From Candidatus Bathyarchaeia archaeon (GTDB lineage: Archaea > Thermoproteota > Bathyarchaeia > Bathyarchaeales > Bathycorpusculaceae), in NCBI GenBank assembly GCA_050012255.1, contig JBEKHN010000006.1, positions 1 through 64,000 of the forward strand: a DNA stretch of 64,000 nt. The letters run 5' to 3'. Position 1 is the stretch's first letter, and each line of letters opens with the position of its first letter. A program made the position numbers and the translations under genes. The notes beneath the pieces are model-generated. The model ran no database searches and was not told where the DNA came from. It was given only the letters and a program-made list of their open reading frames with translations. This document shows positions 13,724 to 32,485 of this stretch, in pieces.

Positions 13724-13810
13724 ACATTTCGGTGCGGCACGGACGGCTGACACAGTTCATAACAATCCACTAGTATAATTGAAAGAACCGAGGAAGGTGT
13801 ACCAGTCAAA

Positions 13811-15865: not shown

Positions 15866-16328
15866 TAACTAGTAGGCAGCGTTAGAGATTAACGTTTACT
15901 GACTTACGGAAGCACGCTTTTCCAACCGCGTCAGTTTGTTGATTATTCATCATTGATCTTGCTATTCCCCGAAGTCGTTCCGAGTCGCTGCAACTTCATA
16001 AGACCGCACATGACACTAAAGGGAGGAACACCGTTTGTGAATTACCAAAAATACCTCATCATCCAAGAAAAGCCCCTCTGGTTAATAGACCTCTCAGCAA
16101 AACCCATAAGACCCTAAGGGTTAACAGAACCTAGTCGCCAAACGAGAGTTTACAGGGAGAACAACCAAACAAAGAGTTTACAGAACCTTTTTCTTAATCC
16201 ACCAGTACAAGCACATAGAGTTCAGTTTGGCTGGCGCAAATAGGGCGCGCGCGCCTGCGCACGAATGGTTTAAACCGACGTAAAGCGTAGTTTGCTTAAG
16301 AAGGAAGCCCAAGTAGAGGAGAGCAGTC

Positions 16329-17096
16329 TTGGCGGAACCAAAGCTCGAACTTGATGATTATGTCGATATCGACACGCTCAAGCAAATAGAGGATGATGAA
16401 ACGAAGATTTTGGGATATAATGTAGCCTTTACGAGACTTGACGGTTCGATTATTACACGAGGAAGTGATTATACATCCCGTCGACTCCTCAGTGGAAGCT
16501 GCGCTTTTCTTGCCCGCTTTCCGAACGGCTTTTATGAATGTCAACGTTCGGACGACGAAGCTTGCAAATTTGTCGTCAACAATCGCCGTTCCCTACTGTA
16601 CCGATGTAGAGGAGGTTTCAGTAATTTCGCAATACCAATAGAAATAGATAAGAGAATCATAGCTTGCATGTTCGGCGGGCAGTTTCTTGTTCTTGAGCCT
16701 AAACGCGCAAATCAGAAACAGCATTTCGAAGACTTTTGTCGAGATCACGAAATCCATCTCAGGGAAGGACTTGGCAGAGTTATAAAAGATGGCTTTTTCT
16801 TCAGAGGCGAGCAGATAGACGAGAGTCAAGTGGAAGAGATTGCGAAAACATGCGGTATCGATGTCTCCGAACGAGATGAGTTTGTACGCGTATACAAGAG
16901 AGAGTTCAGTTTACGAAGTGGGAGAGTATTTAATGTCGAAACGTTCATGCGAGATTTCGCGCACCTTGAAGTCATTACGAAGTTATTATCAAGCATCGGT
17001 CAGAAAATTCCCCGCCTAGAAGGAAAAAGCAACTCGGAGTATCGGACACCTCCCAATCATGGAAAGAAAGACGACGGTCCTCTCAAAAGATGGTGA
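16329..17096 (+). CDS. PocR ligand-binding (sensor) domain protein
   Basis: C...ECQRSD...YRCRGGFSNFAIPI...MFGGQF PocR signature. Confidence 0.8.
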   Translation: MAEPKLELDDYVDIDTLKQIEDDETKILGYNVAFTRLDGSIITRGSDYTSRRLLSGSCAFLARFPNGFYECQRSDDEACKFVVNNRRSLLYRCRGGFSNFAIPIEIDKRIIACMFGGQFLVLEPKRANQKQHFEDFCRDHEIHLREGLGRVIKDGFFFRGEQIDESQVEEIAKTCGIDVSERDEFVRVYKREFSLRSGRVFNVETFMRDFAHLEVITKLLSSIGQKIPRLEGKSNSEYRTPPNHGKKDDGPLKRW

Positions 17097-17406
17097 ACGC
17101 AAATTGGACAATGATGATCAAAAACCTCATTATGATACCGTGGCCTCGGCCTTTCTGGGAGTCTCAAGCACAATGATGGCAATCATTGGAAGTTTGTTAC
17201 CATTTCTAAAGATCCAAAAAGCTTTGAGCAACGCGCAGTCTTTTCTTTTTGTTTCAGTGATAGTTTTTCTCATTACGACAATCGTAGCCAGCACATTAAG
17301 CCTAATGGAGCGAAACGATACTCGGTTCAAAAGAGTTCTTTGCAAGATATCCGCGATCCCGTTGATAATTTCCACGGTAATCCTTGTCGTGATAATATTG
17401 ATTTGA
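17059..17406 (+). CDS. Small membrane protein
   Basis: Three hydrophobic segments; start uncertain. Confidence 0.55.
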   Translation: MERKTTVLSKDGERKLDNDDQKPHYDTVASAFLGVSSTMMAIIGSLLPFLKIQKALSNAQSFLFVSVIVFLITTIVASTLSLMERNDTRFKRVLCKISAIPLIISTVILVVIILI

Positions 17407-17411
17407 ACTGG

Positions 17412-17587
17412 TAGCGCGCATGCTTGTTCCGAAATTGGCTAAAAATGGTTTTTATTCTTCTTGTGGGGTTTGGGACACTTTCAGGTATCGTGCATGTCCA
17501 TGCCTTTTATGACAAGCAACTCTTCCCGAAATGCGAGAGCGGAATTAAAACCATTTTTGACCATTTTAGGAACACGCATGCGCGCTA
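17412..17587. mobile_element. 176-bp MITE-like unit with ~46-bp imperfect terminal inverted repeats
   Basis: TAGCGCGCATGCTTGTTCCGAAATTGGCTAAAAATGGTTTTTATTC ... GAATTAAAACCATTTTTGACCATTTTAGGAACACGCATGCGCGCTA. Confidence 0.7.
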
Positions 17588-17675
17588 AGCGTTGGTCATG
17601 AGGTGATACCTTAGATGAGCAGGAAAAAGATATCAGGAGGTATTTTCAACTGAATCAGCAGGGAGGGCGCTATGT

Positions 17676-19229
17676 TTGCGAAAGTGGCTGTCAAATCGGT
17701 GGAGAAGCCTTAAGAGCGCATTGTCATTCTTCAGACAGATTCAGACCCCGATCTCAATTGTAACTGCGATCGGGTATGTAGGTTCGGTTGCGTGGACCGT
17801 CGTAGAATTCTTGGGAGGGAACCACGATGAAGCACTTATGGGTGGTTTTATAGGCTTTTCCACGAGCACAGCGATTGCAGTTGCTGGTCTGTCAAGCTAT
17901 GTTAAGATAGTCAGAGAAAGTCTAGACAAAACAATGAAAGAAGTGAGTCAGACTGCACTTCACGCAATTCACGGTATTCATATACAAATGGAAAAATTGG
18001 AACCCGAATTGGCCGACATACTAATGGAACAAATGACTGACACACGAAGAGTTGCCCAGCAAATGGAGTCCTTTGTTGAAAATGAAGAATGTGAACTTTC
18101 TGTCGATTGCGCAATCGAACTGCTGACCAGATACACAGAGACTTGCACGTCAAGTATTTGGGCGACTACATTTTATGATCTGAGTAGTTGGTACGACAGT
18201 CTAGAATGGTATGAATATAGGAAGGCACAGAGAGAAAAGGTCGAAGAGGCAAAAAACAGAAGAACAAAATTCAGGCTGGTCAGGATATTTCCTCTGACTG
18301 AACAACAAATGCTCGATGATCGAATACGCATCAATATGCAGCTTCAGGCCGAATATGGCATAGAGGTACGTCTAATGGAACTGACCCAGAAGATAACTGT
18401 AAGGGATTTCGTGATATTTGATTCCAAGAAAGCCATTGAAGTACTTCAAAGAGATGAGGTAGGCCCACACGGCGAGCACAGATACTTGGCGAAGGTAACA
18501 TCGCGAAAATCGACAATCAACTCCTTCGCCACTGAGTTTAGGAGAATGGAGCAACGCACGAGGATTTTCAAGAAACCAGAGGATTTGATGAATTATAAGC
18601 CGACTGAATCCATGAAAAACTTCCAGAAACTCTTGACTATTATTCAAGAGACTTTGGACAACGGCGTAGATGTTTGTGCGACAAACATGAGCGACATAAG
18701 AGGTCTCCAAAGCGAGATGTACGAACTCTTGTTCATACTGAATAGAAAATCCCTTGGAAAGAAAACACAGCCCGCTGAGGTGGCCCGTAAAGCAAAGAGA
18801 GGGAGAATAAGGAGGATATTTGTTGCCGAGCAAAAGAAGTTAAATGAAGACGCGAGACTTCTGGACATCCTACGAGCGACACTGGAAACCAACATCAACT
18901 CAGGAATAGATGTCTATGTCCTTTTCAGAGATGACCCAAGAGTAAGCCCTGTGGAACTACAAGATTTTCTTGTCGGGGAGAACAATTTTCTGTTTGTGAA
19001 CTATGATCCAGGTTTTGGGTATGAGGATTTCTCTACAAATAAGTTCTGTGTTGTGCCTGATATACCTAGCGATGCAAAAGAGAAGAATATACTCATATAT
19101 ACGAAATCTGGTGGTAGATCTGCTGCCATAGACAACTATCAGAGGGTCTTCGAAGAGTATCTGAAACTCGCCCATAAAGTGACAAGAAGAAACTTGCCTG
19201 AATTCGTCAATGCTCTTCAGAAAGTATAG
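17676..19229 (+). CDS. Two-TM protein with two tandem DUF6879-like domains
   Basis: Repeated AT...R(L/I)xRIF...DF(V/L) pattern in both halves; family name from memory. Confidence 0.55.
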   Translation: MRKWLSNRWRSLKSALSFFRQIQTPISIVTAIGYVGSVAWTVVEFLGGNHDEALMGGFIGFSTSTAIAVAGLSSYVKIVRESLDKTMKEVSQTALHAIHGIHIQMEKLEPELADILMEQMTDTRRVAQQMESFVENEECELSVDCAIELLTRYTETCTSSIWATTFYDLSSWYDSLEWYEYRKAQREKVEEAKNRRTKFRLVRIFPLTEQQMLDDRIRINMQLQAEYGIEVRLMELTQKITVRDFVIFDSKKAIEVLQRDEVGPHGEHRYLAKVTSRKSTINSFATEFRRMEQRTRIFKKPEDLMNYKPTESMKNFQKLLTIIQETLDNGVDVCATNMSDIRGLQSEMYELLFILNRKSLGKKTQPAEVARKAKRGRIRRIFVAEQKKLNEDARLLDILRATLETNINSGIDVYVLFRDDPRVSPVELQDFLVGENNFLFVNYDPGFGYEDFSTNKFCVVPDIPSDAKEKNILIYTKSGGRSAAIDNYQRVFEEYLKLAHKVTRRNLPEFVNALQKV

Positions 19230-19256
19230 CGGACAACCACTGGTATATCCTGAAAA

Positions 19257-20492
19257 TCATTGCTTTTTCTCCGCATGATACGCGATCAAGGATTTGACAT
19301 AGTTTTCAACTTCATCCCCTAGCTCAGGTGGCAAGGAACGAAGCTGGGTCCTAGGTCTGCAAATCAATCCGTTGTATCGTCGATCCTTTCCATTTCTCCT
19401 GATCCTGCGGGCGCGAGCGCTTTCCCAAAGTTCTTTGAGAGTCTTTTTCTCCGCACCAACAAGAGAACCTATCCTTTCTTCGAACAATCCACCAGGACAT
19501 GGATAGACTTCTCCTCTGACATTAGCGTACAGTGCAAAGTTTCGCTGTCTGCAGACATGTCCGCCTGCAAAAGCTGAGACTCCTTCAAATTTGATTTTGT
19601 TTCTTGGGTTCATATTCCACCAATAAATCCTTTTCCAGAGGTCTATTTTCTCTTTTCTACAAACGTCATAGACTTCGCGTTGTTCATCCCATTTTGTCTT
19701 TCCACAGGGTATGAAGGTGACTACGAGCGGATATATATTGAGCCTTCTGAAATGAGCATACATCCTGAGAATCTCCTCGTAGTTTCTGTATTTTCCTCCC
19801 AAGACAAGAATGTCCGCTCCCAATCTGGTAGGGTTGCTCCTGTTTAGTCCGACCTCTATAAGCCTTTCAATGCAGAGCTTGCTAAACCGTGTAAAGTCAT
19901 ATCGCTCTCCTTCCTTCTGGCTGATGACTATCCGTTTTCCTTTGAAGAAGAACTTGGGCAAGCCGACGATGCGGTTTTGAAGTTCGCCTTTCAGACTGTT
20001 AACCTTGACTATGACCGAGACATCCAGGTCGCCCAAGAGGCTAGCCAAGTCGCTGCCACTCATACCGTAAATTTGATTTGAGAGTCTATCGTCTCCTATT
20101 ACATGCCCTGCTGTGAAAACCAGAGGAATCATTCCTAATCTGTGAACATACCTGAGAACTTTCAGGAACTGCCGATCTTCAAAAGGCTCGCCTTGACCCA
20201 CAAAGTGAATGGACTTACAGCCAAGTGCTTTTGCCTGCTCGATGATCTTCGTTGCCTGCGGTAGACTGATCTTGGGCAGGCCTCGGTCGCGCACGTCTTC
20301 TCTTCTAAAGCAATAGCCACAATTCAGGCTGCACTTGATTCCCCACTCGAAATCAAGCATAAGCATTCTGTCGGTGTTTTCAGCTTTTCTGATCTCTTCT
20401 TCTGAAAACGTCCATCCGCGTATACCATTAATGTATCTTGGTCGGAACGTAGCAACACCCCTTTCGCTTTCAATAGAATTACTTACGTGCAT
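19257..20492 (-). CDS. Radical SAM protein with SPASM/Twitch-like C-terminus
   Basis: CSLNCGYC, GQGEPF, C-terminal C...GEVYPC. Confidence 0.88.
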   Translation of the reverse strand: MHVSNSIESERGVATFRPRYINGIRGWTFSEEEIRKAENTDRMLMLDFEWGIKCSLNCGYCFRREDVRDRGLPKISLPQATKIIEQAKALGCKSIHFVGQGEPFEDRQFLKVLRYVHRLGMIPLVFTAGHVIGDDRLSNQIYGMSGSDLASLLGDLDVSVIVKVNSLKGELQNRIVGLPKFFFKGKRIVISQKEGERYDFTRFSKLCIERLIEVGLNRSNPTRLGADILVLGGKYRNYEEILRMYAHFRRLNIYPLVVTFIPCGKTKWDEQREVYDVCRKEKIDLWKRIYWWNMNPRNKIKFEGVSAFAGGHVCRQRNFALYANVRGEVYPCPGGLFEERIGSLVGAEKKTLKELWESARARRIRRNGKDRRYNGLICRPRTQLRSLPPELGDEVENYVKSLIAYHAEKKQ

Positions 20493-20744
20493 TCTTGATT
20501 CTGGGTTTCAATCTTCCTTCCTTTTTGTTAATGTGATAATGTAATAACTCTTCTTATTTTAGAGTATTGATTTATGACCCACTCACTGCTGTGACACGAT
20601 GATGGCCCACGCTTATTTGAGCGCGCGCGCTACCTGGAAAAGAAGGGTGATCGGAGACCAAAGCCTCGAGCTGGAAGAAGGGCAGCCCGTAGAAAGTAAC
20701 CGAGGAGTTCCGTTGGTCTGTCCATTAGGGTAGCCGAGCAACGG

Positions 20745-20855
20745 AGCCGTATCGGACCGAAGAGACGGACCGTTATGGGACCGTGAGACGGACCGTTACT
20801 GGACCGTGAGAAAACCGATTAGAAAACCGAGGGCTGGTCCATATCGGAAACCGTG
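20745..20855. repeat. Phased ACCG / 23-bp tandem repeat cluster (iteron-like)
   Basis: GAGACGGACCGTTATGGGACCGT / GAGACGGACCGTTACTGGACCGT; ACCG roughly every 11-12 bp. Confidence 0.75.
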
Positions 20856-21174
20856 GTTAAAAGCCACTGTACGGAAAATCACGGTTCCAACTCGGCACCA
20901 TGCTCGGCTTCAGAGTGGTTCCAGCCTGTCGGGGATCTTCGGCCCTTGCCAGTGGGTTGCGACAGAGTGATGTAGAAGACTAGGGCTCCCCCCGGTATTT
21001 CTGGCGGGTTTCTGTGGTTCCTTAGCTGGTTCCTTATGGTTTTTTTGTTTTTTTCTCGGCGCGCCCATTGTTTCCATTAGCCAATACTAATAGCGAACAA
21101 ACTACGTAGTTTGTCTCCATTGTTTGATGGAATTGTAGCATTATATTTATTAAGCTCAATAGTACGTTCTGTTT

Positions 21175-21740
21175 TCGTACGTTGTGCTTAAAGCAACAAC
21201 GTACAACATTGGCGGGCGACAAAATAAGCCTTACCTAGACAAAAGCCGTCTAAAACGCTTTAAAAGACATAAAGCGTTTTTACCTAAAAGGCGTTTAAGC
21301 TGTGCGGGCAATTTCCGACTCTATTAACCCTTAAACGGTTAGGTTATTCCGAGAACACAAAAATAGCCACAAAATAGGCGTTTGCAGTCAAACAACTTAC
21401 GCGCATTTTAGGCGAAACTTGTGCATTGTCGGCGGATTCCAGCCCTAGCATAAGGTTAAAAGTTGCCTAGACTGTCGGAGAAAACCTCTTTATGGAGAGG
21501 GCGTTTAACGGTCTTACCTCTTGACAGAGAAACCAAATAAAACCGCTAAAATGTGGTTTCACGTCTAAAATAGACGCATAAGCGAAAAACAGTTAAGATT
21601 TAGGCTGTTTTTCAAATAGGCGTTTCCTAATTCGCTGATTTTGTCGAAAGACCGTTGAAGCAGAATAAAGCCTATAAAATTTGATTCTAATTCAGACAGA
21701 CGCTTCTCTAAGCCGTTGTCCACAGTAATCTAGGGGCTTC
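21175..21740 (+). other. Hairpin-rich non-coding region (candidate ncRNA or ssDNA structure)
   Basis: Inverted repeats 21177-85/21196-204, 21252-61/21271-80, 21584-94/21603-13; recurrent AGGCGTTT; TTTATTAA box at ~21146. Confidence 0.45.
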
Positions 21741-21743
21741 TCT

Positions 21744-22070
21744 ATGTTGTATATAGCCAAATGTAGACGTTGCGGATACCTAGTGCACAATGAATCCTGT
21801 CCAGACCTTAAAGCTGACTTGAGTCGACACCTGAACGATTCGCACAGGGAAGGCTATGATTTTCCTCTGCATGTCACTATGAAGGACTATAAGGCTTCTT
21901 TCGTCATAACCACAATTCACGACGCTGAGGAAGTTGAAGGTATCCTATCCGTCATAAACAATCGTGGGTTTTGGGTGGCTATTCGTAGCCATCCACACCT
22001 AGAAAACACCCTTTTTTCTGGTTTGGGCAACGGGGAGTTTAAGCTCTTTCTGAAATCTGAACGGAACTAA
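21744..22070 (+). CDS. Hypothetical protein, N-terminal C2H2-like zinc site
   Basis: CRRC...HLNDSH. Confidence 0.65.
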   Translation: MLYIAKCRRCGYLVHNESCPDLKADLSRHLNDSHREGYDFPLHVTMKDYKASFVITTIHDAEEVEGILSVINNRGFWVAIRSHPHLENTLFSGLGNGEFKLFLKSERN

Positions 22071-22111
22071 CGCCGTAGAGGTTAGACTCTACACAAAAAG
22101 GAGAATATGTT

Positions 22112-22582
22112 ATGCCAAAACCACGCCAAGCTCAAACGGAAGCCGTTACTGTTCCCGCAGAGGACAGGCTAGAACTGCTAGAGGGTTTTGTGAACCTCGT
22201 TTCTGAACGATGGGGCTATCTGACAGCTCGCAGGCTGACTCAGAAGGACATGAACGAGAAGACCGCAACCGAATCTAAGGCGGCACGTGAGATTTCGAAG
22301 GCTATTGGTGAGAACGTGGAGAAGCTCATCAAGACACCTTCACAGGAAATCGCTAAGGTAGTCGTTGCCAAACGTGAAGCTCTCAAAGATGCACGGACGA
22401 CTCTGAAGGATGCCCGCAAGCCGTTCAACGAGAAGATGACACCTCTAGCCAGCATTATCAAATACTGTGACAGCGTGGCTATTCCCGACTCTCTGAAGGA
22501 GTTAGGACACCCCGTTGTCCCACGTTTCAGCCTGTCCGAATGGGCGCAGAAGGCGGTAGAGCAGACCAAGAAAAAGGCGTAA
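22112..22582 (+). CDS. Hypothetical coiled-coil protein
   Basis: 156-aa ORF with AGGAG SD, followed by CCC-polyT. Confidence 0.7.
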   Translation: MPKPRQAQTEAVTVPAEDRLELLEGFVNLVSERWGYLTARRLTQKDMNEKTATESKAAREISKAIGENVEKLIKTPSQEIAKVVVAKREALKDARTTLKDARKPFNEKMTPLASIIKYCDSVAIPDSLKELGHPVVPRFSLSEWAQKAVEQTKKKA

Positions 22583-22624
22583 GCTCTGTTTCTTGGCAAA
22601 CCCCTTTTCCCCTTTTTTCTACTT

Positions 22625-23225
22625 GCTAGAGTCAGAGTGAGTAATCACCTGACGGCATAGAAAGGCTACCTCCACGAGCAAATATCCATTCAGACAGACT
22701 AAAGAGCTTGCAATAATGTGGGTTCTCTAAAAGCCTAGTTCCCAGCCATAACCTCGTATGCGTCACCTAATTAACCCGTTACTTGTTAATGGCTTCTGAT
22801 TAGATAGAGGACGTTGGGGTTATGACGGCTGGAGATAAACCCACGTCAAAGACTTGCGTCTATGCTGTTCGCCCTAAAGGTCTGTCTAGTGTTATGACCG
22901 CCGCCTGTATGGGAAACAGGCACCACCCCAATGTAGAACACTGGACAGGTAACCGACTAGGACACCAACCGACCTTAAAGCTAATGTTTTAAGGTGATGG
23001 TAGGGCTCTCTTTTAGAGGTGATTGGCGGGGAAGCCAGTGACAAAAGAGGGATAGCCTGTTGAAACACAAAACAGAAGCCTCTTTACGTTTTGCCGCATG
23101 CTTGTAAGAGCCACCCCCAAATTCATTGTCTTGCAAGCCCTCAATTTGAGTAGGCAAACGCAGGCAGCCATGCGAAGTGATTTGCACGGTAAGGAAAAGG
23201 GGCAGGGTTAGCGTAGACGCTACAA
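22625..23225 (+). ncRNA. Candidate ~600-nt structured RNA of unknown class
   Basis: Nested helices seen by eye: GNRA hairpin 22631-53; 22718-24/22838-44; 22742-55/22816-32; 22884-93/22937-46; further helices to ~23222; no plus-strand ORF. Confidence 0.6.
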
Positions 23226-23246
23226 TGCTTTCTGGGGTGAAATGAA

Positions 23247-23372
23247 ATGGGAATAATAAGCCCACAACAGCTGTATGACGACCCGAAGCTCTGGCTGTCG
23301 GTAGACCACCAATTCCACAGTGTGCTAGGGAAGCTGATGGAAAAACTGTTTCCCGATTGGTCGGGAAACTGA
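23247..23372 (+). CDS. Small hypothetical protein (41 aa)
   Basis: MGIISPQQLYDDPKLW... preceded by GGGGTG at 23234. Confidence 0.45.
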   Translation: MGIISPQQLYDDPKLWLSVDHQFHSVLGKLMEKLFPDWSGN

Positions 23373-23512
23373 ATGCCATCGGGTGCCATTGCCTACTGTG
23401 CGATGGTCAAGAGCTTGTTCCCTGCACAAGCGGAGATGGCAAGAAGGGCCTGATTACAGGCTGGGTTGAAAAACCAGAGAAATTGCTGAACATACGAGAT
23501 GTAACCAAATAG
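23357..23512 (+). CDS. Small Cys-containing hypothetical protein (51 aa)
   Basis: ...GCHCLLCDGQELVPC...; stop abuts the next array leader; start uncertain. Confidence 0.4.
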   Translation: MVGKLNAIGCHCLLCDGQELVPCTSGDGKKGLITGWVEKPEKLLNIRDVTK

Positions 23513-23542
23513 CCCTCTTTTTTCTGTTCTGGGGTGTTCACG

Positions 23543-23695
23543 TTGAAGTATCAAGTGATTTTCACCGCAGGCTACGAAATTGATGCAAAGAACAAGAAAC
23601 AAGCCGAGGAAAAGGCGAAACTTGAGTTTGCCAAAGAATTGATAGAAGAAGGAGCAAAACGTTTTCTCGTAGACGTCATCCCGCTGAAGGGTTGA
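23543..23695 (+). CDS. Small hypothetical protein (50 aa, absent from ORF track)
   Basis: MKYQVIFTAGYEIDAKNKKQAEEKAK...; TTG after GGGGTG; TGA overlaps ligase ATG. Confidence 0.65.
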   Translation: MKYQVIFTAGYEIDAKNKKQAEEKAKLEFAKELIEEGAKRFLVDVIPLKG

Positions 23696-24693
23696 TGCAG
23701 ATGTATGTAAAGCCAATGCTGTGCCAAGAACTTGTAGTCAATGGAATACTTGAAAACAACGGACTTGACGGAGAAAAGGTGACTGCAGCATACAGGAAAG
23801 CCATAGCGGAAGCACTTCGAAAGCTAATGGCAAGAAAGTTCGTCTCCGAGAGGAAAGCTACCTGAATAGCCCTCAGATGGGACGGCACGAGAGTTCTTGT
23901 CATCAACGAAGACGGAACAATAATTCTGCAGAACCGCAACGGAATCATCTACACTATAAGGCTACCCGACATTGTAAAGCCGCTGAAAGCAATTCCTGGC
24001 AGGTGGAAGCTCGATGGCGAAGTAGTCTTCATAAGCCCTAAAACTGGGGAAGAAATGTTCACGCCCTGCCAACGCCGCTGCAGTACCCAGTATCCTGACC
24101 CATATCTTCGAGAGCAGTTTCCCGTCAAATTTGAGGTTTTCGACCTTTTAGAAGCTGGCGGATCCAATGTTGAACGGGAGCCCTACTATAAACGCAAGGA
24201 CAGGTTATACACGCTCTTGACGGTGAATACAGATGGCGACGTTGTAGAGTACGTGCCGTATGACAGCAACCTTCCAGAAGCATGGGAAGAAGCGGTCAAG
24301 CAAGACCGTGAAGGCTTAATCGTGAAACAACTCGAAAGCCCGTACGAAGAGGGCGACAGATCTTTCAACTGGCTCAAGGTAAAAAACTGGAGATTTGAAC
24401 GCTGCAATGTAGTCGGTTTTACAGCTGGCGAAAGAGCCCGCAGCCATTTCTTCGGCAGCCTTGTACTCGAGCAGAACGGCCAGTTTAGAGGATGCGCCGG
24501 CAGCGGGTTCAACGGGTGGGAACTGCGGCGTTTCAAAGACATGTTTTCAGATGCGCCAAGGGTGCCGAAGCCTTACAGTGATGAGCAAGTAGGCGAGCCC
24601 TATACAGCCGTCAAAGTCAACATTCAAGTTCTCGTGAAGTACTATCAAATCACAGAAAACAAAGTGTTTCGGTTCCCGATATTCATAGCCTAA
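23695..24693 (+). CDS. ATP-dependent DNA ligase (325 aa after removal of the 21-nt intron)
   Basis: KPML; motif I ERK[intron]WDGTR; LDGEVV; FEVFDLL; EGLIVK; WLKVK; OB-fold GSG...RFP. Confidence 0.9.
23856..23876 (+). other. Bulge-helix-bulge (BHB) intron, 21 nt, in ligase mRNA
   Basis: GAGG/CCTC 4-bp helix with AAA and AGA 3-nt bulges, inner GCTA/TAGC stem; in-frame TGA at 23863; excision restores AAA TGG. Confidence 0.82.
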
Positions 24694-24725
24694 ATCCCTT
24701 CTTTTTTCCTATTTGGGGTGTTACA

Positions 24726-24968
24726 ATGGCAATGCGAGGAAAACACACCAAGAAATTCAGGGACGAGCAAGCAGAAAACGATAGCTTCGTAAGACTTGTT
24801 GGTGGAGTCAAGAGAGCTGATCGTATGCAGCAAATCTGGAATATGAGTTATCCTCAAGGTAACTGCGGTATGTTGAAGGGAAAAAGCAAGGAAGAAGTCT
24901 TCCGCGAGAAGGCGAAAGCAGAGGGCTTCACAGACATATAGGTTAACAGGTTCTTAGACCTACCATAA
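24726..24968 (+). CDS. Hypothetical protein with probable premature TAG at 24939
   Basis: Frame continues VNRFLDLP to TAA 24968, next to the following leader. Confidence 0.55.
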
Positions 24969-25001
24969 TCTCTTTCCCTTTTTTTCTGTCGGGGTGTAAT
25001 A

Positions 25002-25802
25002 TTGCCCACATCAACGATATGGCTGAAAATAGGAAACGCAGACGTAAGAGTGTACAAGCAGAAAGTCGGCAACGCCCTGATGGTCAAAGAACCCGAATTG
25101 GTCATGCAGATAGATGACAAGCCTGTGAACAATGTTCGGATTGTGGACCAGTGCCAGTGGGTCCGCGCAGGCACAGGCGAATCATTGACGGTTGAAACCA
25201 CTTTGAAAGACGCCAAAGGAGAGCAGATACCGATCTCAGAAGGAATGTGCATCCTTCAACACTACAAAAGCATTGTTCTCAACGAGAAAGCCGAACAAGT
25301 GGAAAAGAAGAAGATTCGATTCTACCTCTTGAACCCTGACGGCAGCATCGGAGACGAGGTAGCACCGTACCCGCCCACGGAGCGGATCGAGGTCAAAGAG
25401 GACGCCTCAGAAGCCAAGGAGCCCGGAGCCGCCTACTGGATTCCGTCAACAGTCATCGAAGGGTTCTTGATAACTGAAGAGTACGAGCTGCCCGTAGCTG
25501 ACCCTCGCAACGATCCTAAGGTATGGAAGGAAGCCGAAGACGCAGCCAAACGCGATGAGATAGCGATAACCACATACTCGAACGGTGGTTTCACACTCTA
25601 CTACGCTTTTTTGGTGCCTTTTTTCACGGAAGGACAGTTTGAGTGGTTGCTGAGGATCAGCAACAAGAAGGTAGAGCACCGTTGCTTGCACGACATACCG
25701 GCGCCTACACCTGTGCCTATTCGCCCGGTGAAGACACTCGAGACTCTGCCTCCGATTCAAGCCCTGCTGACCGTGCCGACGTCGAAAAAGAAGAAGCAAT
25801 AA
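25002..25802 (+). CDS. Divergent Ku-like DNA end-binding protein (putative)
   Basis: By-eye match to prokaryotic Ku core: TERIEVKE...WIPSTVIEGFLITEEYELP...VWKEAEDAAKRDEIAITTYSNGGFTLYYAFLVP; basic C-terminal tail. Confidence 0.55.
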   Translation: MPTSTIWLKIGNADVRVYKQKVGNALMVKEPELVMQIDDKPVNNVRIVDQCQWVRAGTGESLTVETTLKDAKGEQIPISEGMCILQHYKSIVLNEKAEQVEKKKIRFYLLNPDGSIGDEVAPYPPTERIEVKEDASEAKEPGAAYWIPSTVIEGFLITEEYELPVADPRNDPKVWKEAEDAAKRDEIAITTYSNGGFTLYYAFLVPFFTEGQFEWLLRISNKKVEHRCLHDIPAPTPVPIRPVKTLETLPPIQALLTVPTSKKKKQ

Positions 25803-25852
25803 AAGCCTAAAACTTCCCTCTTTTTTCTGTTTGGGGTGTCATCATAAAGCAG

Positions 25853-26452
25853 TTGACATTATCCAGAGATATCAGCATCAGCGGAAACTCTAAGCAGATA
25901 GCGAAGGCAAAGAAGATTCTGAGCCCTATGCTGAATCGCCTTGAGACGCTGAACGTGGTGCAAGCAAGACTGAGTCTCCAGGACGCCATCGACGACAACA
26001 CTCTGTACGCATCTATTCTGTTCAGAGGACAGGTGGTGTGGGGCAGAAAAAGAATCACAAACAATCTCAAGCGCATAATCGCAAGAGGCCAGCTCTACGG
26101 GAACAAACAGGTCAAGTGGATGCGTGTGAACCCAAACATTTGCTTACCATCCGTGCCGCAAGATTTCAAGCCGATACTTTCCGAGTACTTCTATCAGTTC
26201 TTAACCATGTGCTGCGGCAGCAACCCGCATTACAGTCGCGCCGGCTGGATAGGCATCTACCCAACCTTAGCCGATCTGAAACGATTCTTCATGAAGAACG
26301 AGCACGGCAAGCAGGTGTCCGACTATGTCCCGGACTGGAAAGCAGACGCACAAAGAGTGGTGGAAGACATCGAACGCATGCTCTACCCCTTCCGAAGCTA
26401 CCTAAAAGCCAAAGAAAAAGAAGAAGCACGTCGACAACACCGCATACGTTGA
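25853..26452 (+). CDS. Hypothetical protein, paralogue A
   Basis: LSEYFYQFLTMCCGSNPHYSRAGW shared with the next gene. Confidence 0.75.
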   Translation: MTLSRDISISGNSKQIAKAKKILSPMLNRLETLNVVQARLSLQDAIDDNTLYASILFRGQVVWGRKRITNNLKRIIARGQLYGNKQVKWMRVNPNICLPSVPQDFKPILSEYFYQFLTMCCGSNPHYSRAGWIGIYPTLADLKRFFMKNEHGKQVSDYVPDWKADAQRVVEDIERMLYPFRSYLKAKEKEEARRQHRIR

Positions 26453-26486
26453 AGCTCCCTCTCCTTTTTCTCCTTGGGGTGAAACA

Positions 26487-27080
26487 TTGGAGAAAACATT
26501 GCTCGGCGGTCCAGCGTCATTTCGAGATCACGCACGAATCCGGATCATAGGAAAAAAGGCTGACGTGGAAAAGGCCGAAACAGCATTAAAAGCTATTGCC
26601 GATTTACAGTCTCTTCCCGAGCCTAAGGCTCGCTTAGAGATCCAGAGGATAATTGAAGAACAGGATTTGAAGGCACACATATTATTTGACGGAAACACCG
26701 TTTGGAACACGAAACCTATTCTCGCAAATCTGAAGAGAATAATGGAGCACGGAACACTCTACAACGGAAAAAAACCAGCTTACGTTCCGATAGGCAGCAT
26801 GTTACGCATGCCAGTTGTTGGGGAATGCATACTCTCCGACTACTTCTACGATTTCCTGCACCTAGAATGCGGAAGCATAGCACACTACAGCAAGCAGGGC
26901 TGGGTGACCGAGTACCCGACTGTTGAGGATCTCAAAGCATTCTTTCAGAAAAACGAGTTCGGCAAAAGAGTCTTAGACAACATTCCAGGTTGGATGACTG
27001 ATGCCAAGAGAGTTGTCGAGGAGATTGAACAGATGCTGTTTCCGCTCCGGAGTTTCATTAAAAGCAAGCAGAACGCTTAA
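26487..27080 (+). CDS. Hypothetical protein, paralogue B
   Basis: LSDYFYDFLHLECGSIAHYSKQGW. Confidence 0.75.
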   Translation: MEKTLLGGPASFRDHARIRIIGKKADVEKAETALKAIADLQSLPEPKARLEIQRIIEEQDLKAHILFDGNTVWNTKPILANLKRIMEHGTLYNGKKPAYVPIGSMLRMPVVGECILSDYFYDFLHLECGSIAHYSKQGWVTEYPTVEDLKAFFQKNEFGKRVLDNIPGWMTDAKRVVEEIEQMLFPLRSFIKSKQNA

Positions 27081-27108
27081 TCCCTTTTTTTCTGTTTGGG
27101 GTGTCCCT

Positions 27109-27480
27109 ATGGGAGCTACATCAGTAAAAGTCGCAAGGATTCCGAATTGTGACTTCTGCAAAATGGACGGCGTAGACAGACCAGCGAAATATGATGGCAG
27201 GACTGAAGCGGGACCTTGGGCTAATATGTGTCAGGAACACTTTGGCCAGCATGGTGTGGGCTTAGGCGAAGGCAGAGGGCAAATGCTTGAGCTCCAACCG
27301 AAACTCACGGCCAAGAAATCCAATGAGGTCCCGACTGTTGAAGTGCCGCTGAGTCTTGACGATGCTTGCGAGGTCCAGTGTCCTCACTGTGGCGAGAGCA
27401 GAACCGTAGAACCTGACGCAAACTACGTTGTGACCTGTGAAGGCTGCGGCAACAAATATGAGGTCGCATCGGCAATCTGA
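27109..27480 (+). CDS. Zinc-binding hypothetical protein
   Basis: CDFC...YDGRT..GPWANMCQEH and CPHC...CEGC; ATG 27109 after leader. Confidence 0.75.
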   Translation: MGATSVKVARIPNCDFCKMDGVDRPAKYDGRTEAGPWANMCQEHFGQHGVGLGEGRGQMLELQPKLTAKKSNEVPTVEVPLSLDDACEVQCPHCGESRTVEPDANYVVTCEGCGNKYEVASAI

Positions 27481-27522
27481 GCAAACAATCTTAAATTCTC
27501 TTTTTTCTGTTTGGGGTGTAAA

Positions 27523-28587
27523 ATGAAACAGTTATTTCCAGAAGACGACACAAAACCACACTTTTCACTGAAGGAAATGCGGCCAATACCTGCTGCAAAG
27601 GGACCTAAGAGAGCACTGCTTGAACTTATGGACGAAGTTGAAATGAAAATACATCATTTCAGGAAAGAATGCTGGAACATAACAATAGAGCTCCTAGCCG
27701 ACTATCTAGGGTTAATGTCGAACCCTTGGAAATACAGTCTCCCAGACGCAAAATGGGCGGGACCGATAAGTAAACCAAGCTATCACGGTCTCCAGCAACT
27801 CAAGGGACAGGTTCCAACAAACCTGATAGAACAGTATGTTAAGGAAGCCAAAGCCAAACCGTGGGACTACCCCGGCGAAATCTTCATCGAAGAGGAATTG
27901 GCAGGCAGAAGTAACAGGCTGGGACAAATGCTGACACCTAAGCAGATAGTAGATTTTATGATAAAGACACTAAACATTGGGCAAATAAAACAGAATGCTT
28001 TCGGAAGGCCCGATGAGAGGACCGAGGCTTGGCTGAGTGTTGAAGCATTGGCTTATGAACATGCCCTGTCTAAGCTGTCAAGAGGTCTTCTCACGGAACA
28101 TCAGCACCACAGACGCATTGTAGATGTTGAACCAGTATGGGAAAAGTACACTATAAAGCCTCAAACCGTGCTAGAACCTGCGGTTGGTACAGGCCGATTT
28201 CTGATTGAAGCAACTGTACTGGAGCCCAAGGCACCTATGGTGTTGTTCGGAATTGAAATAGACCTCTCACTTTATCGTGCATGCCTTGTAAACATGGCAA
28301 TGTTCAGCAATCATCCATACAGCATAGTGTGTGCGGACACGCTGATGGTCGCCCCGCCTTTTTGTGGTCCGGGAAGCAAGCTCTGGGACTACGGCAATCA
28401 GTGGGATCCTCCGGACATCTCTATGTTTTATTGGAAACCAACACCGCCATTCAAGTTCTCACTGGCAGAATTGGCAAAGACAAGAAAGGAACAACCACTT
28501 GGACCACAACAAGTAGCAATCATGCCTGAAACACCGCCGGCATTCTCTCTTGCACAGTTTGTAAAAGCGAAAAAGAAGCAGACGTAA
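27523..28587 (+). CDS. N-6 DNA methyltransferase-like (HsdM-type SAM-binding part)
   Basis: GQMLTPKQIVDFM, VLEPAVGTGRFL, LFGIEID...ACLVNM, CADTL. Confidence 0.75.
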   Translation: MKQLFPEDDTKPHFSLKEMRPIPAAKGPKRALLELMDEVEMKIHHFRKECWNITIELLADYLGLMSNPWKYSLPDAKWAGPISKPSYHGLQQLKGQVPTNLIEQYVKEAKAKPWDYPGEIFIEEELAGRSNRLGQMLTPKQIVDFMIKTLNIGQIKQNAFGRPDERTEAWLSVEALAYEHALSKLSRGLLTEHQHHRRIVDVEPVWEKYTIKPQTVLEPAVGTGRFLIEATVLEPKAPMVLFGIEIDLSLYRACLVNMAMFSNHPYSIVCADTLMVAPPFCGPGSKLWDYGNQWDPPDISMFYWKPTPPFKFSLAELAKTRKEQPLGPQQVAIMPETPPAFSLAQFVKAKKKQT

Positions 28588-28623
28588 ATCCCTCTTTTTT
28601 CTATTCTGGGGTGTAATGTTGGA

Positions 28624-29247
28624 ATGGTTGAGCATCTCTTGGAAGTGATACAGAGGCCTCACGTTCTGCGTGACCGAGTTCATCCGCAAAGGGAATCGAA
28701 TGTAACCCAGCCATCGAAGACGTCACAGAATCTTCAGTACCTCTTGGATCGTGTCAGGATGCGCAAATGGGTCTATGCAGTGCACGATGATTTGATGGAA
28801 GCCATCATTGAACTTCGACATGAAGTGAAGTTTATCGAGCATCTGCCGGGCTGCTGGCTCTGGAAAATGGAGCTCCAGCTGGACGTGGAGCGGTACTGTG
28901 GAAACCATTCATTCTGGTATGTGGGTCTTGAAAACAGCGAGTACCTGGAAAGACGATATCGCAGCTGTCCCAAGGAGCGGAACTACGTGATACCATCGTA
29001 CTGGGAGCAGCTTCAGTACTACAGAGAGCACGGCAGCCTAGACAGCATGGAAAACACAACGGTGCAGTTCATTCTTGACAGGGCAAAATGGGCTTACAGG
29101 ATCTGTGGAAAACAGATAAGGCTGGCCAGACGATTACTCCGCATGGTGAGAAACTGGAATTTCAGTGACCCTAACATGATCTGCGAATTCAACAGAATAT
29201 ACGAACGCCTAGGAATGTACGATGTAGCCCTTCCCTTCGAAGTCTAA
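28624..29247 (+). CDS. Hypothetical protein
   Basis: 207-aa ORF in array; start uncertain. Confidence 0.6.
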   Translation: MVEHLLEVIQRPHVLRDRVHPQRESNVTQPSKTSQNLQYLLDRVRMRKWVYAVHDDLMEAIIELRHEVKFIEHLPGCWLWKMELQLDVERYCGNHSFWYVGLENSEYLERRYRSCPKERNYVIPSYWEQLQYYREHGSLDSMENTTVQFILDRAKWAYRICGKQIRLARRLLRMVRNWNFSDPNMICEFNRIYERLGMYDVALPFEV

Positions 29248-29279
29248 CCCTTCCCACTTTTTCTATCGGGGTGAAACAC

Positions 29280-29735
29280 ATGCCAACAATAAGAAGTGAA
29301 TATGGCTTTGACCAGTTCACAACTCTATTACAGAAATTCGCATATGAAGTAGCTATGGATGCCGTGACAGACCTACGACACGACCATGTTCGAATAGATA
29401 TTGGTGGCCACAGATTCCAATATGTTGATACTGGCAAGTACATGCTTAGGTTCTCTCCGTCAAGGATCAGTTTTATGAAGCAAGATAAGACAGACCACTG
29501 GAGCTTTGAAATTGAAGAGAAACTCTACATGACGAGCAATCACCGTACCAAAATATCTTTTATAGTGGCAGTTGAGTCGGTGTACGACGAAAAGACACAG
29601 CGTTACATCGAGCACGACCGCAGGGAAAAGGAGAAAGCACGAGAAAAAGAGATCCGCGAGTTCATAGAGAAAATGATGACTCAAAACTCAATGAAGCCGA
29701 TGCCCAGATTCTCGTTAAAGACCGGACCCGCCTAG
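29280..29735 (+). CDS. Hypothetical protein
   Basis: ATG 6 nt after GGGGTG. Confidence 0.65.
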   Translation: MPTIRSEYGFDQFTTLLQKFAYEVAMDAVTDLRHDHVRIDIGGHRFQYVDTGKYMLRFSPSRISFMKQDKTDHWSFEIEEKLYMTSNHRTKISFIVAVESVYDEKTQRYIEHDRREKEKAREKEIREFIEKMMTQNSMKPMPRFSLKTGPA

Positions 29736-29771
29736 ACAACCAGTATATTCCTCCCTTTTTTCTATCTCGGG

Positions 29772-30116
29772 GTGAACAAAATCAACAACCTTCAAATGAA
29801 ACATCTGTTGAAGCTCTGTAAGAAACATGAAATTGATCCCTACGAAATAGACAGCACTTTATCCTACTCTGAAGTCAAGAAACACATACAATCCCTCATC
29901 ATAAGCCCTGAAAAGGACTTGGACAAGTGGGATTCCGCGGAAGAACAGTACCTCAAGGACCATCCTCTCTGGAACTACATCATGAACACATCGAAGACCA
30001 GACACAGGAAAGTCCCTCCTGAACTGGAAGGATTCTCACTGAGGGCTTATGCGCAAAGCTTAAAAACACAGGCTAACCGTTCTCCGTTCTCTCCGAATGA
30101 ATGCTTAAATACGTAA
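29772..30116 (+). CDS. Hypothetical protein
   Basis: 114-aa ORF after leader. Confidence 0.6.
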   Translation: MNKINNLQMKHLLKLCKKHEIDPYEIDSTLSYSEVKKHIQSLIISPEKDLDKWDSAEEQYLKDHPLWNYIMNTSKTRHRKVPPELEGFSLRAYAQSLKTQANRSPFSPNECLNT

Positions 30117-30154
30117 TAACCCTCCTTTCTCTTTGTACGAAGTGGGGTGGTACG

Positions 30155-30361
30155 TTGGGTAAAAAGAAAACAGCCAGCCAAGCAACTGAACGACTCAATC
30201 TGTATCTCGAACCAGACTTAGCAAGGAAACTCAGCAACTATTGCCTTGCAGTAGAGAACAAGCAGCAGAGAATAATCACACACATTAAACACAAAATAAC
30301 TAAAAAGGCACTGGAAGAATGGCTCGAGAAACACGCTGACGACCTGACTATAAAACTCTAA
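30155..30361 (+). CDS. Small RHH-like protein
   Basis: RLNLYLEPDLARKL...ITKKALEEWL; TTG after GGGGTG. Confidence 0.6.
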   Translation: MGKKKTASQATERLNLYLEPDLARKLSNYCLAVENKQQRIITHIKHKITKKALEEWLEKHADDLTIKL

Positions 30362-30423
30362 TCCTCCCATTGAAGCGTAAAATCACACAACTAAATCCCT
30401 CCTTTTTATTTCGGGGTGAGAAA

Positions 30424-30915
30424 ATGTTTGAACAAACCCTTTTCGAAATAGTGTCAGCAGGGCTGTTCGCCGCGGCCCTGGTCCACGGAATGCGCAGGTA
30501 CAATCCGCGCCGGCTGCTCATCGCGTTGGCGACCGTGGCTGTGTTGATGATCGCTGAGGAAAACGCTGTCATGATGCTGACGAACAACTACGCATACTAC
30601 GAGTATCACCTGTGGGTCGGCCGGTTGCCCGTGGCCATCATCCTATCCTGGTTGGTCGTGGTTTATCTCGGATCTCAGCTGTCAGATGTCGTTAAAAATC
30701 GATTTCTAGGAGCCCTAATCACTTCAAGCATCGACCTGGTCCTGGAACCCGCCGCGTACTATTGGGGGCTGTGGGTGTGGTATCCGACGACCGTTTACTC
30801 ACCGGTGAGCTACTTCAATGCTCCCATATACAACGGTGTCGGATGGTTCCTTTTCACGCTGATCGGAGTACTGATACTGAACAAAATGTGTACCTGCCAT
30901 TCTCGCGTTCCGTAA
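30424..30915 (+). CDS. Carotenoid-biosynthesis (CruF-like) membrane protein family
   Basis: LPVAIILSW...DLVLEP...GLWVW...P.YN.VGWF. Confidence 0.7.
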   Translation: MFEQTLFEIVSAGLFAAALVHGMRRYNPRRLLIALATVAVLMIAEENAVMMLTNNYAYYEYHLWVGRLPVAIILSWLVVVYLGSQLSDVVKNRFLGALITSSIDLVLEPAAYYWGLWVWYPTTVYSPVSYFNAPIYNGVGWFLFTLIGVLILNKMCTCHSRVP

Positions 30916-30952
30916 TCACCCCTTTTTTACACTTTCTTGTCTATTGTCGGAT

Positions 30953-31231
30953 TAGCGCGCTGCCTTGTCCCGAAATTGGTCTAAAATGGTCATAATTCCT
31001 ATTTTCGGGTTTAGGGACAGTTTTGAGGCATATATCTGTTTTTAGTCCTCCTCTGCGCTTTGACGTCCCAGACGGACTAGATGTAGCTTCAACAGCTTAT
31101 GGGAGAACTCTACTTCCATCGAGCTTTGATGGAACCCCGTGATTTGCCATCTTTCAACGCGGTCAAGATTACCCGTCAAACAAGCTCAAATCAAGCTCCA
31201 ATAGACAAAAGAAGAATAAAAACCATTTTTA
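30953..31231. repeat. Second, right-truncated copy of the MITE-like unit
   Basis: Left end TAGCGCGCTGCCTTGTCCCGAAATTGGTCTAAAATGG; 31211-31231 is the exact reverse complement of 17440-17460. Confidence 0.65.
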
Positions 31232-31346
31232 CAGAGAAGATTTGCCGCAAAACGTGAATTAGTTTAATCATTCTAGGACAGAAACAAAAAAAAGACAGAA
31301 ATCTTAAATCTGCATAGCAATGGAACCTTTTTGAGGTGAATAGAAT

Positions 31347-31724
31347 ATGCCTAAGTTTTTCGAAAGAAAAAATACCCCAACTTGTAAAGATTGTGCATAC
31401 GTTGAAGACGTATTCAATTTCTGGGTTCGCAAAAGACCTGATTTAAGGGGAGACCAACTTAGCCAACTTCTCAAGGGAATGCCTTTGACTTTTATTTGTC
31501 GAAGAATAGATAAGCACTTCAATAGCTGGAAAGAGGTTTCTGAAAATCCTAAATGTAACCATTTTCTTAAAGGCTGTCGTTCAATATCAGTCGAAGAGCA
31601 AGAACATTTCCTAGATAGAGACTTGCAACGAAAGAACTATGTAGCATCCATTTTGACTTCAATAATAATTATGACTTTTACAGTTGTCATTGCTTTTGCA
31701 AGCCTTAGAGGAATTCTTTTTTAG
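31347..31724 (+). CDS. Hypothetical protein with Cys motifs and C-terminal TM
   Basis: CKDC...C...C; hydrophobic tail. Confidence 0.6.
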   Translation: MPKFFERKNTPTCKDCAYVEDVFNFWVRKRPDLRGDQLSQLLKGMPLTFICRRIDKHFNSWKEVSENPKCNHFLKGCRSISVEEQEHFLDRDLQRKNYVASILTSIIIMTFTVVIAFASLRGILF

Positions 31725-32485
31725 AAGAAGAGAAAAGCCTAAGCCATACAATAGAAAAGGCTCTAGTCAAGCTGAAAGAGGATGCAGTACGGTAAGCACT
31801 AGCATGACTTCGAAAATGAGGTGTCCTTTAGGTCTTATTTGAAGGCTTGAATAACTCTTGTTGAACACAAGGCAAAGAGAGGCTATGTATATTTACCATC
31901 ATTTTGGTGAATGTTGCTGAGTGTTCAATTAAAACAATGTAACTCTTCGAAAACTACCAGAGGGATGTCACTATTTCGAAATTCCCATCATTTTTCCATA
32001 CGAAAGAAGTGACCTACTTCTGGTCTTTCTCGAAATATTGTGGAAATCATGTTGAACACGTCCAACAATATAACCAAAGAAAAGAGGCGCATAGTAATGG
32101 GCAAATGCGAAAAGAGCCACGAAAAGAGTTTGTTTCTGAATTTGCAGTTTGATTGAGTCAATATAAAATCGGAAGATTTCGGAAAACTTTAATAGGATGT
32201 CCTGACACTACGAATTGAGGGGGGCAAGCAATAAGAGAGCGGGAAAGTGATGTGATGGATAGATTTCAGCCATTCTCGGTGGAAGCCAGCCGAGCCTATT
32301 CATCCTTCACCCCGAGAGATGCATAATCTAATATACGTTGGCTATTTCAACCTTGTGCCCCAAAACTGGTTCTAGTCAAACTGAAGCGCGCGCGCATCGC
32401 GGAGCCTTACACTGGGACCTTCAGCTTAACCCCCCACAGTTCGAGAAAGGCGGACACTCCAAGAAGGCCGAAAGCTGACGCGAGG

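Follow-up and report, generated by a model that had tools for sequence, protein, structure and literature searches.

In the 64,000-nucleotide stretch analyzed here (the window: positions 1 to 64,000 of the forward strand of contig JBEKHN010000006.1, assembly GCA_050012255.1, Candidatus Bathyarchaeia archaeon), the gene of an ATP-dependent DNA ligase carried by an integrated mobile element was found to be split in motif I, inside the codon of the catalytic lysine, by 21 nucleotides (nt) that include an in-frame TGA (23856-23876). This insert is very probably a real mRNA intron of the bulge-helix-bulge (BHB) type, spliced by the tRNA-splicing endonuclease EndA and by RtcB, which would apparently make the ligase the third gene family known with an EndA-spliced mRNA intron. 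The sequence, its fold, the conservation and covariation of that fold, the selection on the exons, the genes of the splicing enzymes and the island that holds the ligase are shown by the data below.

The first bases of the window are the 3' end of an archaeal 23S rRNA, and the genome is archaeal (2.35 Mb, 38 contigs). The ligase frame opens at ATG 23695, overlapping the TGA stop of an upstream open reading frame (ORF) of 53 amino acids (aa), and reads ...ARKFVSERK-AT*IALR-WDGTRVLVINEDG..., with the TGA at 23863-65. The standard ORF listing holds only fragments here, a 57-aa piece and a 212-aa piece (24055..24693), and no full ligase, as the preliminary description of this DNA had expected of automatic annotation. 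The parts of the gene are:

23695..23855, + strand: ligase exon 1, starting at ATG 23695 or ATG 23701, its last bases being the AA of the catalytic Lys codon
23856..23876, + strand: putative BHB intron, 21 nt, in-frame TGA at 23863-65; equivalent cut 23857-23877
23877..24693, + strand: ligase exon 2, from base 3 of the Lys codon and WDGTR... to the stop TAA at 24691-93; PF01068, 4.4e-26

Deleting 23856-23876 or 23857-23877 in silico leads to an identical product, a stop-free ORF of 161+817 nt encoding 325 aa, which aligns with an uninterrupted ortholog over residues 5-325 at 67% identity; homologs begin M-(I/L/Y)-K-P-M-L-C. Exon 2, from WDGTR onward, corresponds to an ATP-dependent DNA ligase (PF01068, 4.4e-26; phrog_114, 1.2e-27) and matches archaeal ligase structures in the PDB (e.g. 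2cfm, 1.6e-21) in an alignment that reaches the C-terminus, while the profiles of the C-terminal OB domain scored under their cut-offs (PF04679, 20.4 bits; PF14743, 18.3 bits). When the whole frame was translated with X at the stop, the PF01068 match (2.5e-28) extended over residues 31-230 and profile positions 4-204; since it spans both pieces, exon 1 and exon 2 form one adenylation domain. In the genomic reading the Arg of ALRWDG aligns on the Lys of EIKYDGAR in 2cfm, so that the unspliced reading lacks a nucleophile lysine at motif I, and the motif I Lys (KxDGxR) of the adenylation domain is present only once the intron is removed.

The unconstrained minimum free energy (MFE) fold of 23835-23895 consists of a helix, a 3-nt bulge, a 4-bp helix, a 3-nt bulge and a helix, with the following elements:

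23850..23853, + strand: 5' strand of the central helix, GAGG (exon), pairing with 23871-23874
23871..23874, + strand: 3' strand of the central helix, CCTC (intron), pairing with 23850-23853
23854..23856, + strand: 5' bulge AAA, predicted cut between 23855 and 23856; AAA in 17/17 distinct alleles
23875..23877, + strand: 3' bulge AGA, predicted cut between 23876 and 23877; last base A in all alleles
23857..23870, + strand: inner hairpin GCTA-CCTGAA-TAGC with a 6-nt loop; first three inner pairs kept in 17/17
23838..23848, + strand: 5' strand of the outer exon-exon helix, pairing with 23878-23888
23878..23888, + strand: 3' strand of the outer exon-exon helix, pairing with 23838-23848

The letters and coordinates given in the preliminary description (ATG 23695, GAGG/CCTC, AAA, AGA, GCTA/TAGC and the 6-nt loop) are correct and the MFE fold has the same architecture; the exon-exon stem, which had been called weak there, proved not to be so, comprising 3+5+2 bp (the first three being 23846-48/23878-80, the next five having 23840-44 as their 5' strand) with U23845 and A23849 singly unpaired. 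Because A23849 lies opposite the 3' bulge, this bulge is formally a 1x3 loop and the motif a relaxed BHB. Cutting after base 2 of each bulge in silico removes exactly 23856-23876 and rebuilds AA/A TGG (slash at the joint) together with ExKxDGxR, as had been proposed; the product is the stop-free 325-aa protein described above.

A scan of metagenome contigs yielded 38 ligase loci, 35 of which cover the Lys-codon site. In 20 of these 35 an insert lies exactly between bases 2 and 3 of the Lys codon (17 distinct core sequences, one locus being identical to the window), and the remaining 15 are uninterrupted and read (A/S/G)E(R/W/L/M/E)K(W/F/Y/L/H)DG. Among 401 sampled genomes of the class the gene is present in three (G000, G420 and G307), with a 25-nt insert at the Lys-codon site in G420 and an uninterrupted codon in G307; G044, of the same order, is uninterrupted as well (GETKFDGTR). 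The inserts have 17 lengths in total (16, 19, 20, 21, 25, 26, 81, 82, 86, 88, 90, 91, 94, 95, 112, 146 and 247 nt), 14 of which break the frame, and the three that keep it (21, 81 and 90 nt) all hold in-frame stops. Nevertheless, exon 2 is open in all 16 intron alleles other than L046 (12 stop at 269-275 aa and four run off their contigs), and dN/dS ranges from 0.058 to 0.210 (16 calculable pairs; two pairs saturated), which indicates that the intron-bearing alleles are under purifying selection. Since these genes appear functional and yet carry frame-breaking inserts, the inserts must be removed, and joining the ends after in silico cuts at bulge base 2 restores AAA and E-x-K-x-D-G-x-R in every allele. 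As an observation on the uninterrupted loci, L024 (= L060) is a 5.2-kb contig with an intronless ortholog that sits in a bin labelled Thermotogae bacterium and is also found, as the same contig, in the metagenome collection; it may be mis-binned, given its archaeal-element relatives.

The fold in the window, taken on its own, lies within chance, so that its significance rests on the comparison with relatives. Base pairs were counted in the 17 distinct sequences from anchors on the Lys codon and the W/F/Y codon, as the MAFFT alignment had the 5' side of G420 shifted by one column. The central helix was paired in 65 of 68 cells, against a mean of 53.7 with shuffled 3' halves and with 0/2000 shuffles reaching 65, although the alleles are related and such statistics overstate their independence; sliding the 3' partner by 1-2 nt lowered total pairing from 147/170 to 71-83/170. 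All four central pairs form in 14 of the 17 distinct alleles (4/4 in G420 too). The helix variants are GAGG/CCTC, ACGG/CCGT, GCGG/CTGC, GCGG/CCGT, GTGG/CCAT, GCAG/CTGC and GGAG/CTCC, with GCCG/CGGC in G420. Moreover, changes in the exon codon preceding the lysine (Arg, Trp, Gln, Glu or Pro) are matched within the intron (CGG/CCGT, TGG/CCAT, CAG/CTGC, GAG/CTCC and CCG/CGGC, respectively), and the first three inner pairs, kept in every distinct allele, use 2-4 pair types each. The 3' bulge is AGA, AAA, CAA, ACA or CCA, its sole invariant base being the last A, which is what the Lys codon would receive from cutting after bulge position 2.

RNAalifold, applied to seven short-intron versions, returned the same helix-bulge-helix-bulge-helix, with compensatory changes in 7 of 14 pairs, two of them in the exon-exon helix, and the unconstrained MFE yielded the BHB in 13 of the 17 distinct sequences. 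The outer exon-exon helix of the intron alleles has 5-7 of 7 pairs and an unpaired A opposite the 3' bulge. Exon-exon complementarity averaged 6.33/7 in intron alleles (12 distinct flanks) vs. 4.33/7 in intronless ones (12 distinct, L043 being merged with L033 for its identical flanks), a descriptive comparison given that alleles are related.

Inserts of the same kind were found at two further sites of the gene, in alleles that come from other metagenomes. In L050, L051 and L052, all without an insert at the Lys codon, 16 nt with the arrangement TGCC-AAA-hairpin-GGCA-AAA lie between FTPCQ and RRC (3196-3211 in both L050 and L052), and in L046 a 65-nt insert (3078-3142; CTAC-ACA...GTAG-AAA) separates IYT from IRLP. 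Removal at the equivalent bulge positions restores the conserved frame in both cases. The 247-nt Lys-codon insert of L046 (2753-2999) looks composite: in its MFE fold the partner of the exon strand is an internal CCGC-AAA-UGGCG, similar to a second 3' splice site and followed by an AT-rich tandem-like stretch. This insert may be an intron that is nested or in the course of decay.

The phylogenetic analysis of 28 exon-2 proteins (leaving out L046, L050, L051, L052 and L066 for their short frames, and the duplicates L040, L041, L048 and L057) showed that the distribution of the Lys-codon intron needs at least three changes, at least two of them forced by well-supported branches: it occurs in the main clade (66-100%) and in a clade of L053, L054 and L062 that is nested among intronless alleles. 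Although L037 (20 nt) and L039 (82 nt) are closely related (dS 0.27), the interiors of their introns are not; the long introns have a core in common. A scan of the long introns from 11 loci against Rfam gave no match at E <= 0.1. Copies of the intron sequences were found neither elsewhere in the host genome nor at other positions of the fetched loci, so there is no direct sign of mobility between sites, and no relative of the ligase was found in a viral contig collection.

The host genome encodes the enzymes that such splicing would require. Two EndA genes (PF01974; 185 and 189 aa) were detected. The 185-aa protein is closest to crenarchaeal catalytic subunits (2cv8, 2e-39; 3p1z_B, 3e-37) and aligns gap-free across the specificity loop of the A. 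pernix enzyme, with K39-P-K41 on K44-P-R46, while its 189-aa paralog carries Thr at the position of the catalytic His of the M. jannaschii enzyme and looks like a structural beta subunit. The host endonuclease would thus be a two-subunit (alpha-beta)2 EndA with a broad-specificity loop. According to PMC3241643, this loop and its Lys confer broad specificity on EndA; relaxed BHB motifs are described as cut by (alpha-beta)2 enzymes (PMC3241643, PMC6379350) and, in reviews, by both (alpha-beta)2 and epsilon2 EndA (PMC6379350, PMC5829648). RtcB is encoded in the host genome as well (PF01139, 5.8e-179), and ARAGORN placed introns in 17 of the 45 host tRNAs, a rough count given that the program is not tuned for archaeal non-canonical introns.

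Based on these results, the ligase gene would be transcribed together with its 21-nt intervening sequence, and in the pre-mRNA the intron would fold together with the adjoining ends of both exons into a slightly relaxed BHB. The host (alpha-beta)2 tRNA-splicing endonuclease would then cut between 23855 and 23856 and between 23876 and 23877, after nucleotide 2 of each bulge, which is where PMC2738675 places the cuts in BHB motifs (between bulge residues 2 and 3). RtcB would join the exons into a reading frame for a 325-aa ligase in which AAA again encodes the adenylylation lysine (E-R-K-W-D-G-T-R), whereas the unspliced mRNA would give a 56-aa peptide ending at the TGA, or, with read-through, a protein with Arg at the nucleophile position. 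It is from the combined observations that we infer cleavage and ligation, and their positions. The proposal of the preliminary description, that host splicing removes a BHB intron from the catalytic Lys codon in the ligase of a mobile element, is thus backed by covariation, frame-breaking lengths and purifying selection, and further by the intronless E-x-K-W/F/Y-D-G alleles, the (alpha-beta)2 EndA and RtcB genes and the delimited island. The comparison of homologs that it had pointed to supplied both intronless alleles (15/35 loci) and covarying pairs (65/68 in the central helix).

Several observations, in addition to the relatedness of the alleles noted above, weigh against splicing of this insert. 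The motif is not strictly canonical, given the unpaired A that faces the 3' bulge, and the fold energy of the window is ordinary (z = -1.04; 29 of 200 shuffles fold equally well). Three of the 17 distinct alleles have only 3/4 central pairs, and the BHB is missing from the unconstrained MFE of four (L034, L038, L049 and L046); L046 is irregular in general, with an alternative internal 3' site and a weak terminal helix (3/4 pairs). The RNA data, which comprised the assembled contigs of one metatranscriptome (X1, 31% of sampled words) compared with 23400-24900, point in the same direction. Four contigs of 90-99% identity cover 23514-24900, and the sole one that spans the site, a 327-nt contig of a relative (23668-23997; identity about 94%, depth about 5), keeps the 21 nt, its listed differences leaving 23833-23899 unchanged. 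No spliced joint was detected in these contigs, which is weak evidence, since minor variants are lost on assembly into contigs and DNA may be present in RNA libraries, but it is all the RNA evidence available. The contig shows that the unspliced form, or DNA, was present in the library and says nothing on the absence of the spliced form.

A genuine intron could in addition serve as a regulated switch, with ligase production limited to situations in which splicing capacity or the folding of the RNA allows it, such as an induced element or a suitable host. No active enzyme could come from unspliced mRNA, the intron persists in many lineages despite the existence of intronless alleles, and the form assembled from the RNA library was the unspliced one, all of which would suit such a role. 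The interiors, however, are unconserved even between the close relatives L037 and L039, which argues against a conserved sensor, and the intron is dispensable, as the intronless alleles show. We therefore consider a switch unlikely, and any regulatory use would probably be secondary. Most likely, the intron is a persistent, fast-evolving selfish or neutral insertion, whose position in an indispensable codon forces its precise removal.

The in-frame stop, the unremarkable z-score of the fold, the retention of the insert in the RNA-library contig and the location of the gene in an accessory island could also be read as signs of a pseudogene, in which 21 nt disabled a decaying cargo gene and the resemblance to a BHB is coincidental. 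Such a reading is strongly disfavoured and very improbable, as the exons are open in 16 intron alleles with dN/dS of 0.06-0.21, and the inserts lie always at one phosphodiester position and have covarying helices. A common site, a common geometry and an invariant last A would not be expected of random disabling insertions.

Translational bypass would dispense with RNA splicing altogether: as in the hop of T4 gene 60, the ribosome would leave at AAA and land past the insert. Bypass of that type is marked by matching take-off and landing codons and by a stop right after the take-off codon. The insert does begin directly after the Lys codon, forms a hairpin and, in some alleles (e.g. L037), ends in AAA; however, many alleles, the window included, have AGA, ACA, CAA or CCA as their landing triplet, so that peptidyl-tRNA-Lys could not re-pair, GCT rather than a stop follows the take-off codon, and inserts reach 146-247 nt. 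A 4-bp helix between two 3-nt bulges, with its exon strand compensated by the intron strand, would moreover be useless for hopping, and bypass is accordingly judged extremely improbable. The chance that the TGA is recoded or read through into a ligase with a 7-residue insertion is negligible, for although the window insert is in frame and has a single TGA, the adjacent upstream gene uses TGA as its stop, 14 of the 17 insert lengths break the frame, and read-through would align Arg instead of Lys with the catalytic K of solved ligases.

Two further candidates were rejected: an in-frame insertion that the protein tolerates, and a DNA transposon ending in inverted repeats. In the latter case, the "inverted repeat" is formed between an exon codon and intron bases and covaries as the encoded amino acid changes, which is not expected of a transposon end. 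A genome-wide scan for BHB motifs whose removal joins ORFs gave 157,737 structural and 5,110 "strict" candidates, too unspecific for any count; it recovered 23856-23876 as the shortest strict candidate of the window.

The closest known case to the ligase intron is the cbf5 intron of Crenarchaeota (Desulfurococcales, Sulfolobales), a short pre-mRNA intron whose borders with the exons form a relaxed BHB (PMC2738675). In both genes the BHB is relaxed, with predicted cuts between bulge residues 2 and 3, and the codon that the intron interrupts is that of a catalytic residue (Asp in Cbf5, Lys in the ligase); both also share hosts with hetero-oligomeric EndA, a patchy distribution among lineages and variable lengths, some of them frame-preserving (PMC2738675). 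Unlike cbf5, which is a core cellular gene, the ATP-dependent DNA ligase belongs to an integrated mobile element and to another host lineage, and its introns have a much wider size range at one site (16-247 nt) and at least three insertion sites in one gene family. For cbf5 there are cDNA and in vitro cleavage data, whereas splicing of the ligase transcript is a prediction from sequence.

The second precedent is the HVO_1309 mRNA of Haloferax volcanii, an EndA substrate with a spliced form in RNA-seq (PMC10485636). It resembles the ligase, for which the same is predicted, in being an archaeal mRNA acted upon by EndA (PMC10485636), but differs in that its host has an alpha2-type EndA and in that the gene, as far as that source describes it, is neither on a mobile element nor interrupted at a catalytic codon. 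The motif, enzymes and cut positions would be those of archaeal tRNA and rRNA BHB introns; unlike these, the ligase substrate is an mRNA, so the exon-side helices must come from coding sequence. An archaeal rudivirus has 12-bp putative introns (Peng et al., as cited in PMC2738675); like the ligase inserts, these are short, interrupt protein-coding genes and come from a mobile or viral genome of archaea. By that account they keep the frame, their splicing is not shown and no sign of a BHB is apparent, whereas most ligase inserts break the frame and have a covarying BHB.

Among eukaryotes, the small mRNA intron of HAC1/XBP1 is excised by IRE1 together with a tRNA ligase or RtcB, the latter performing ligation in metazoans. 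The splicing proposed for the ligase would similarly be a protein-only, structure-guided excision of a small mRNA intron; HAC1/XBP1 differs in its endonuclease (IRE1), in its motif (twin stem-loops) and in its proven regulatory role, which switches the protein product.

A 2023 review names cbf5 and HVO_1309 as the only archaeal mRNAs known to be spliced by the tRNA endonuclease and expects more (PMC10485636). Full-text searches of the literature, subscription journals and supplements excepted, turned up no description of a comparable intron in any DNA ligase gene or in genes carried by mobile elements or viruses. If the insert is indeed spliced, the ligase would represent a rare spliced protein-coding gene in archaea, the third such gene family and the first to be carried by a mobile element. 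The ligase comes with a comparative series of intronless alleles, 17 lengths at one site, two extra sites and compensatory exon-intron changes, with which the BHB features needed by an (alpha-beta)2 enzyme in mRNA, the gain and loss of introns and the preference for catalytic codons become testable. Since gene callers truncate or drop such genes, here to a 212-aa fragment, accessory genes of uncultured archaea may be systematically under-annotated.

More tentatively, BHB introns could be recurrently inserting and rapidly replaced elements in protein genes of archaeal mobile elements, with a preference for indispensable codons like that of inteins and homing introns, a generalization to which we give somewhat less than even weight. 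In the ligase family, introns lie at three sites, the one at the Lys codon arose or was lost separately at least twice, and close relatives have introns with unrelated interiors; if recurrent insertion is true, this family would provide a natural series for working out how BHB introns are gained. At the same tentative level, it hints at mRNA splicing being much commoner in these archaea and their elements than the two known cases suggest.

The island that carries the ligase is delimited by comparison with two genomes of the same genus, G001 and G007, which share window positions 1-4368 and 42749 onward and not the part between; in G001 these flanks adjoin each other, overlapping by 17 bp. Its boundaries and recognizable cargo are:

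4369..42748: integrated island carrying the ligase, 38.4 kb, absent at the DNA level from G001 and G007
4352..4368, + strand: left 17-bp direct repeat, a copy of the tRNA-Gln 3' end
42749..42824, - strand: tRNA-Gln(CTG), whose 3'-terminal 17 nt (42749-42765) are the right repeat
4397..5755, - strand: tyrosine integrase adjoining the left repeat (PF00589, 5.3e-11)
15275-15865, - strand: TIR-domain protein
19257-20492, - strand: radical SAM/SPASM protein
27511-28584: N6-methylase-like protein
32574-35339, - strand: UvrD-PD-(D/E)XK helicase-nuclease
37259-38362, - strand: C5 DNA methylase
38365-39021: HhH-GPD glycosylase

Given the empty site in G001, the 17-bp repeats and the integrase, the ligase lies in an island integrated at tRNA-Gln. 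Pfam and PHROGs scans of 37 ORFs recognized no capsid, portal or terminase, although archaeal virus proteins are poorly covered and the element may nonetheless be a virus; the only PHROG matches were phrog_114 (the ligase) and phrog_23287 (function unknown). As no capsid or terminase was recognized, "integrated element" is a safer term than "provirus". The neighbours of the ligase are conserved in G044.

Other features of the region were recorded along the way. Upstream of the ligase, between a 156-aa ORF and the 53-aa ORF, about 700 nt (22610-23296) have no + strand ORF above 62 aa, are conserved at 68-79% DNA identity in related elements (L039, L036, L052, L038, L048, L034, L035 and L065) with tblastx matches in all frames, and have no Rfam match; for the element, this segment could represent a non-coding RNA, an origin or a regulatory region. 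Two adjacent paralogous genes (25853-26452 and 26487-27080; 199 and 197 aa), without Pfam or PHROG match, share motifs such as YFY.FL...CGS..HYS..GW. Short repeats of about 45-180 nt at 17411-17589, which has inverted ends, and at 42175-42263 recur several times and in either orientation in genomes of the same genus. At 48683-48930 lies a repeat of about 250 nt that has dozens of copies (73-87% identity) across G001 and G007, also of the same genus, and looks like a MITE-like or IS-derived element. Finally, a T-run followed by GGGGTG about 5-8 nt before the start codon was observed at 23514-23540, at 24694-24722 and ahead of most + strand genes of the 21.7-30 kb region, as well as in related loci; this recurrent intergenic motif probably unites the T-tract of a terminator or promoter with a Shine-Dalgarno-like site.

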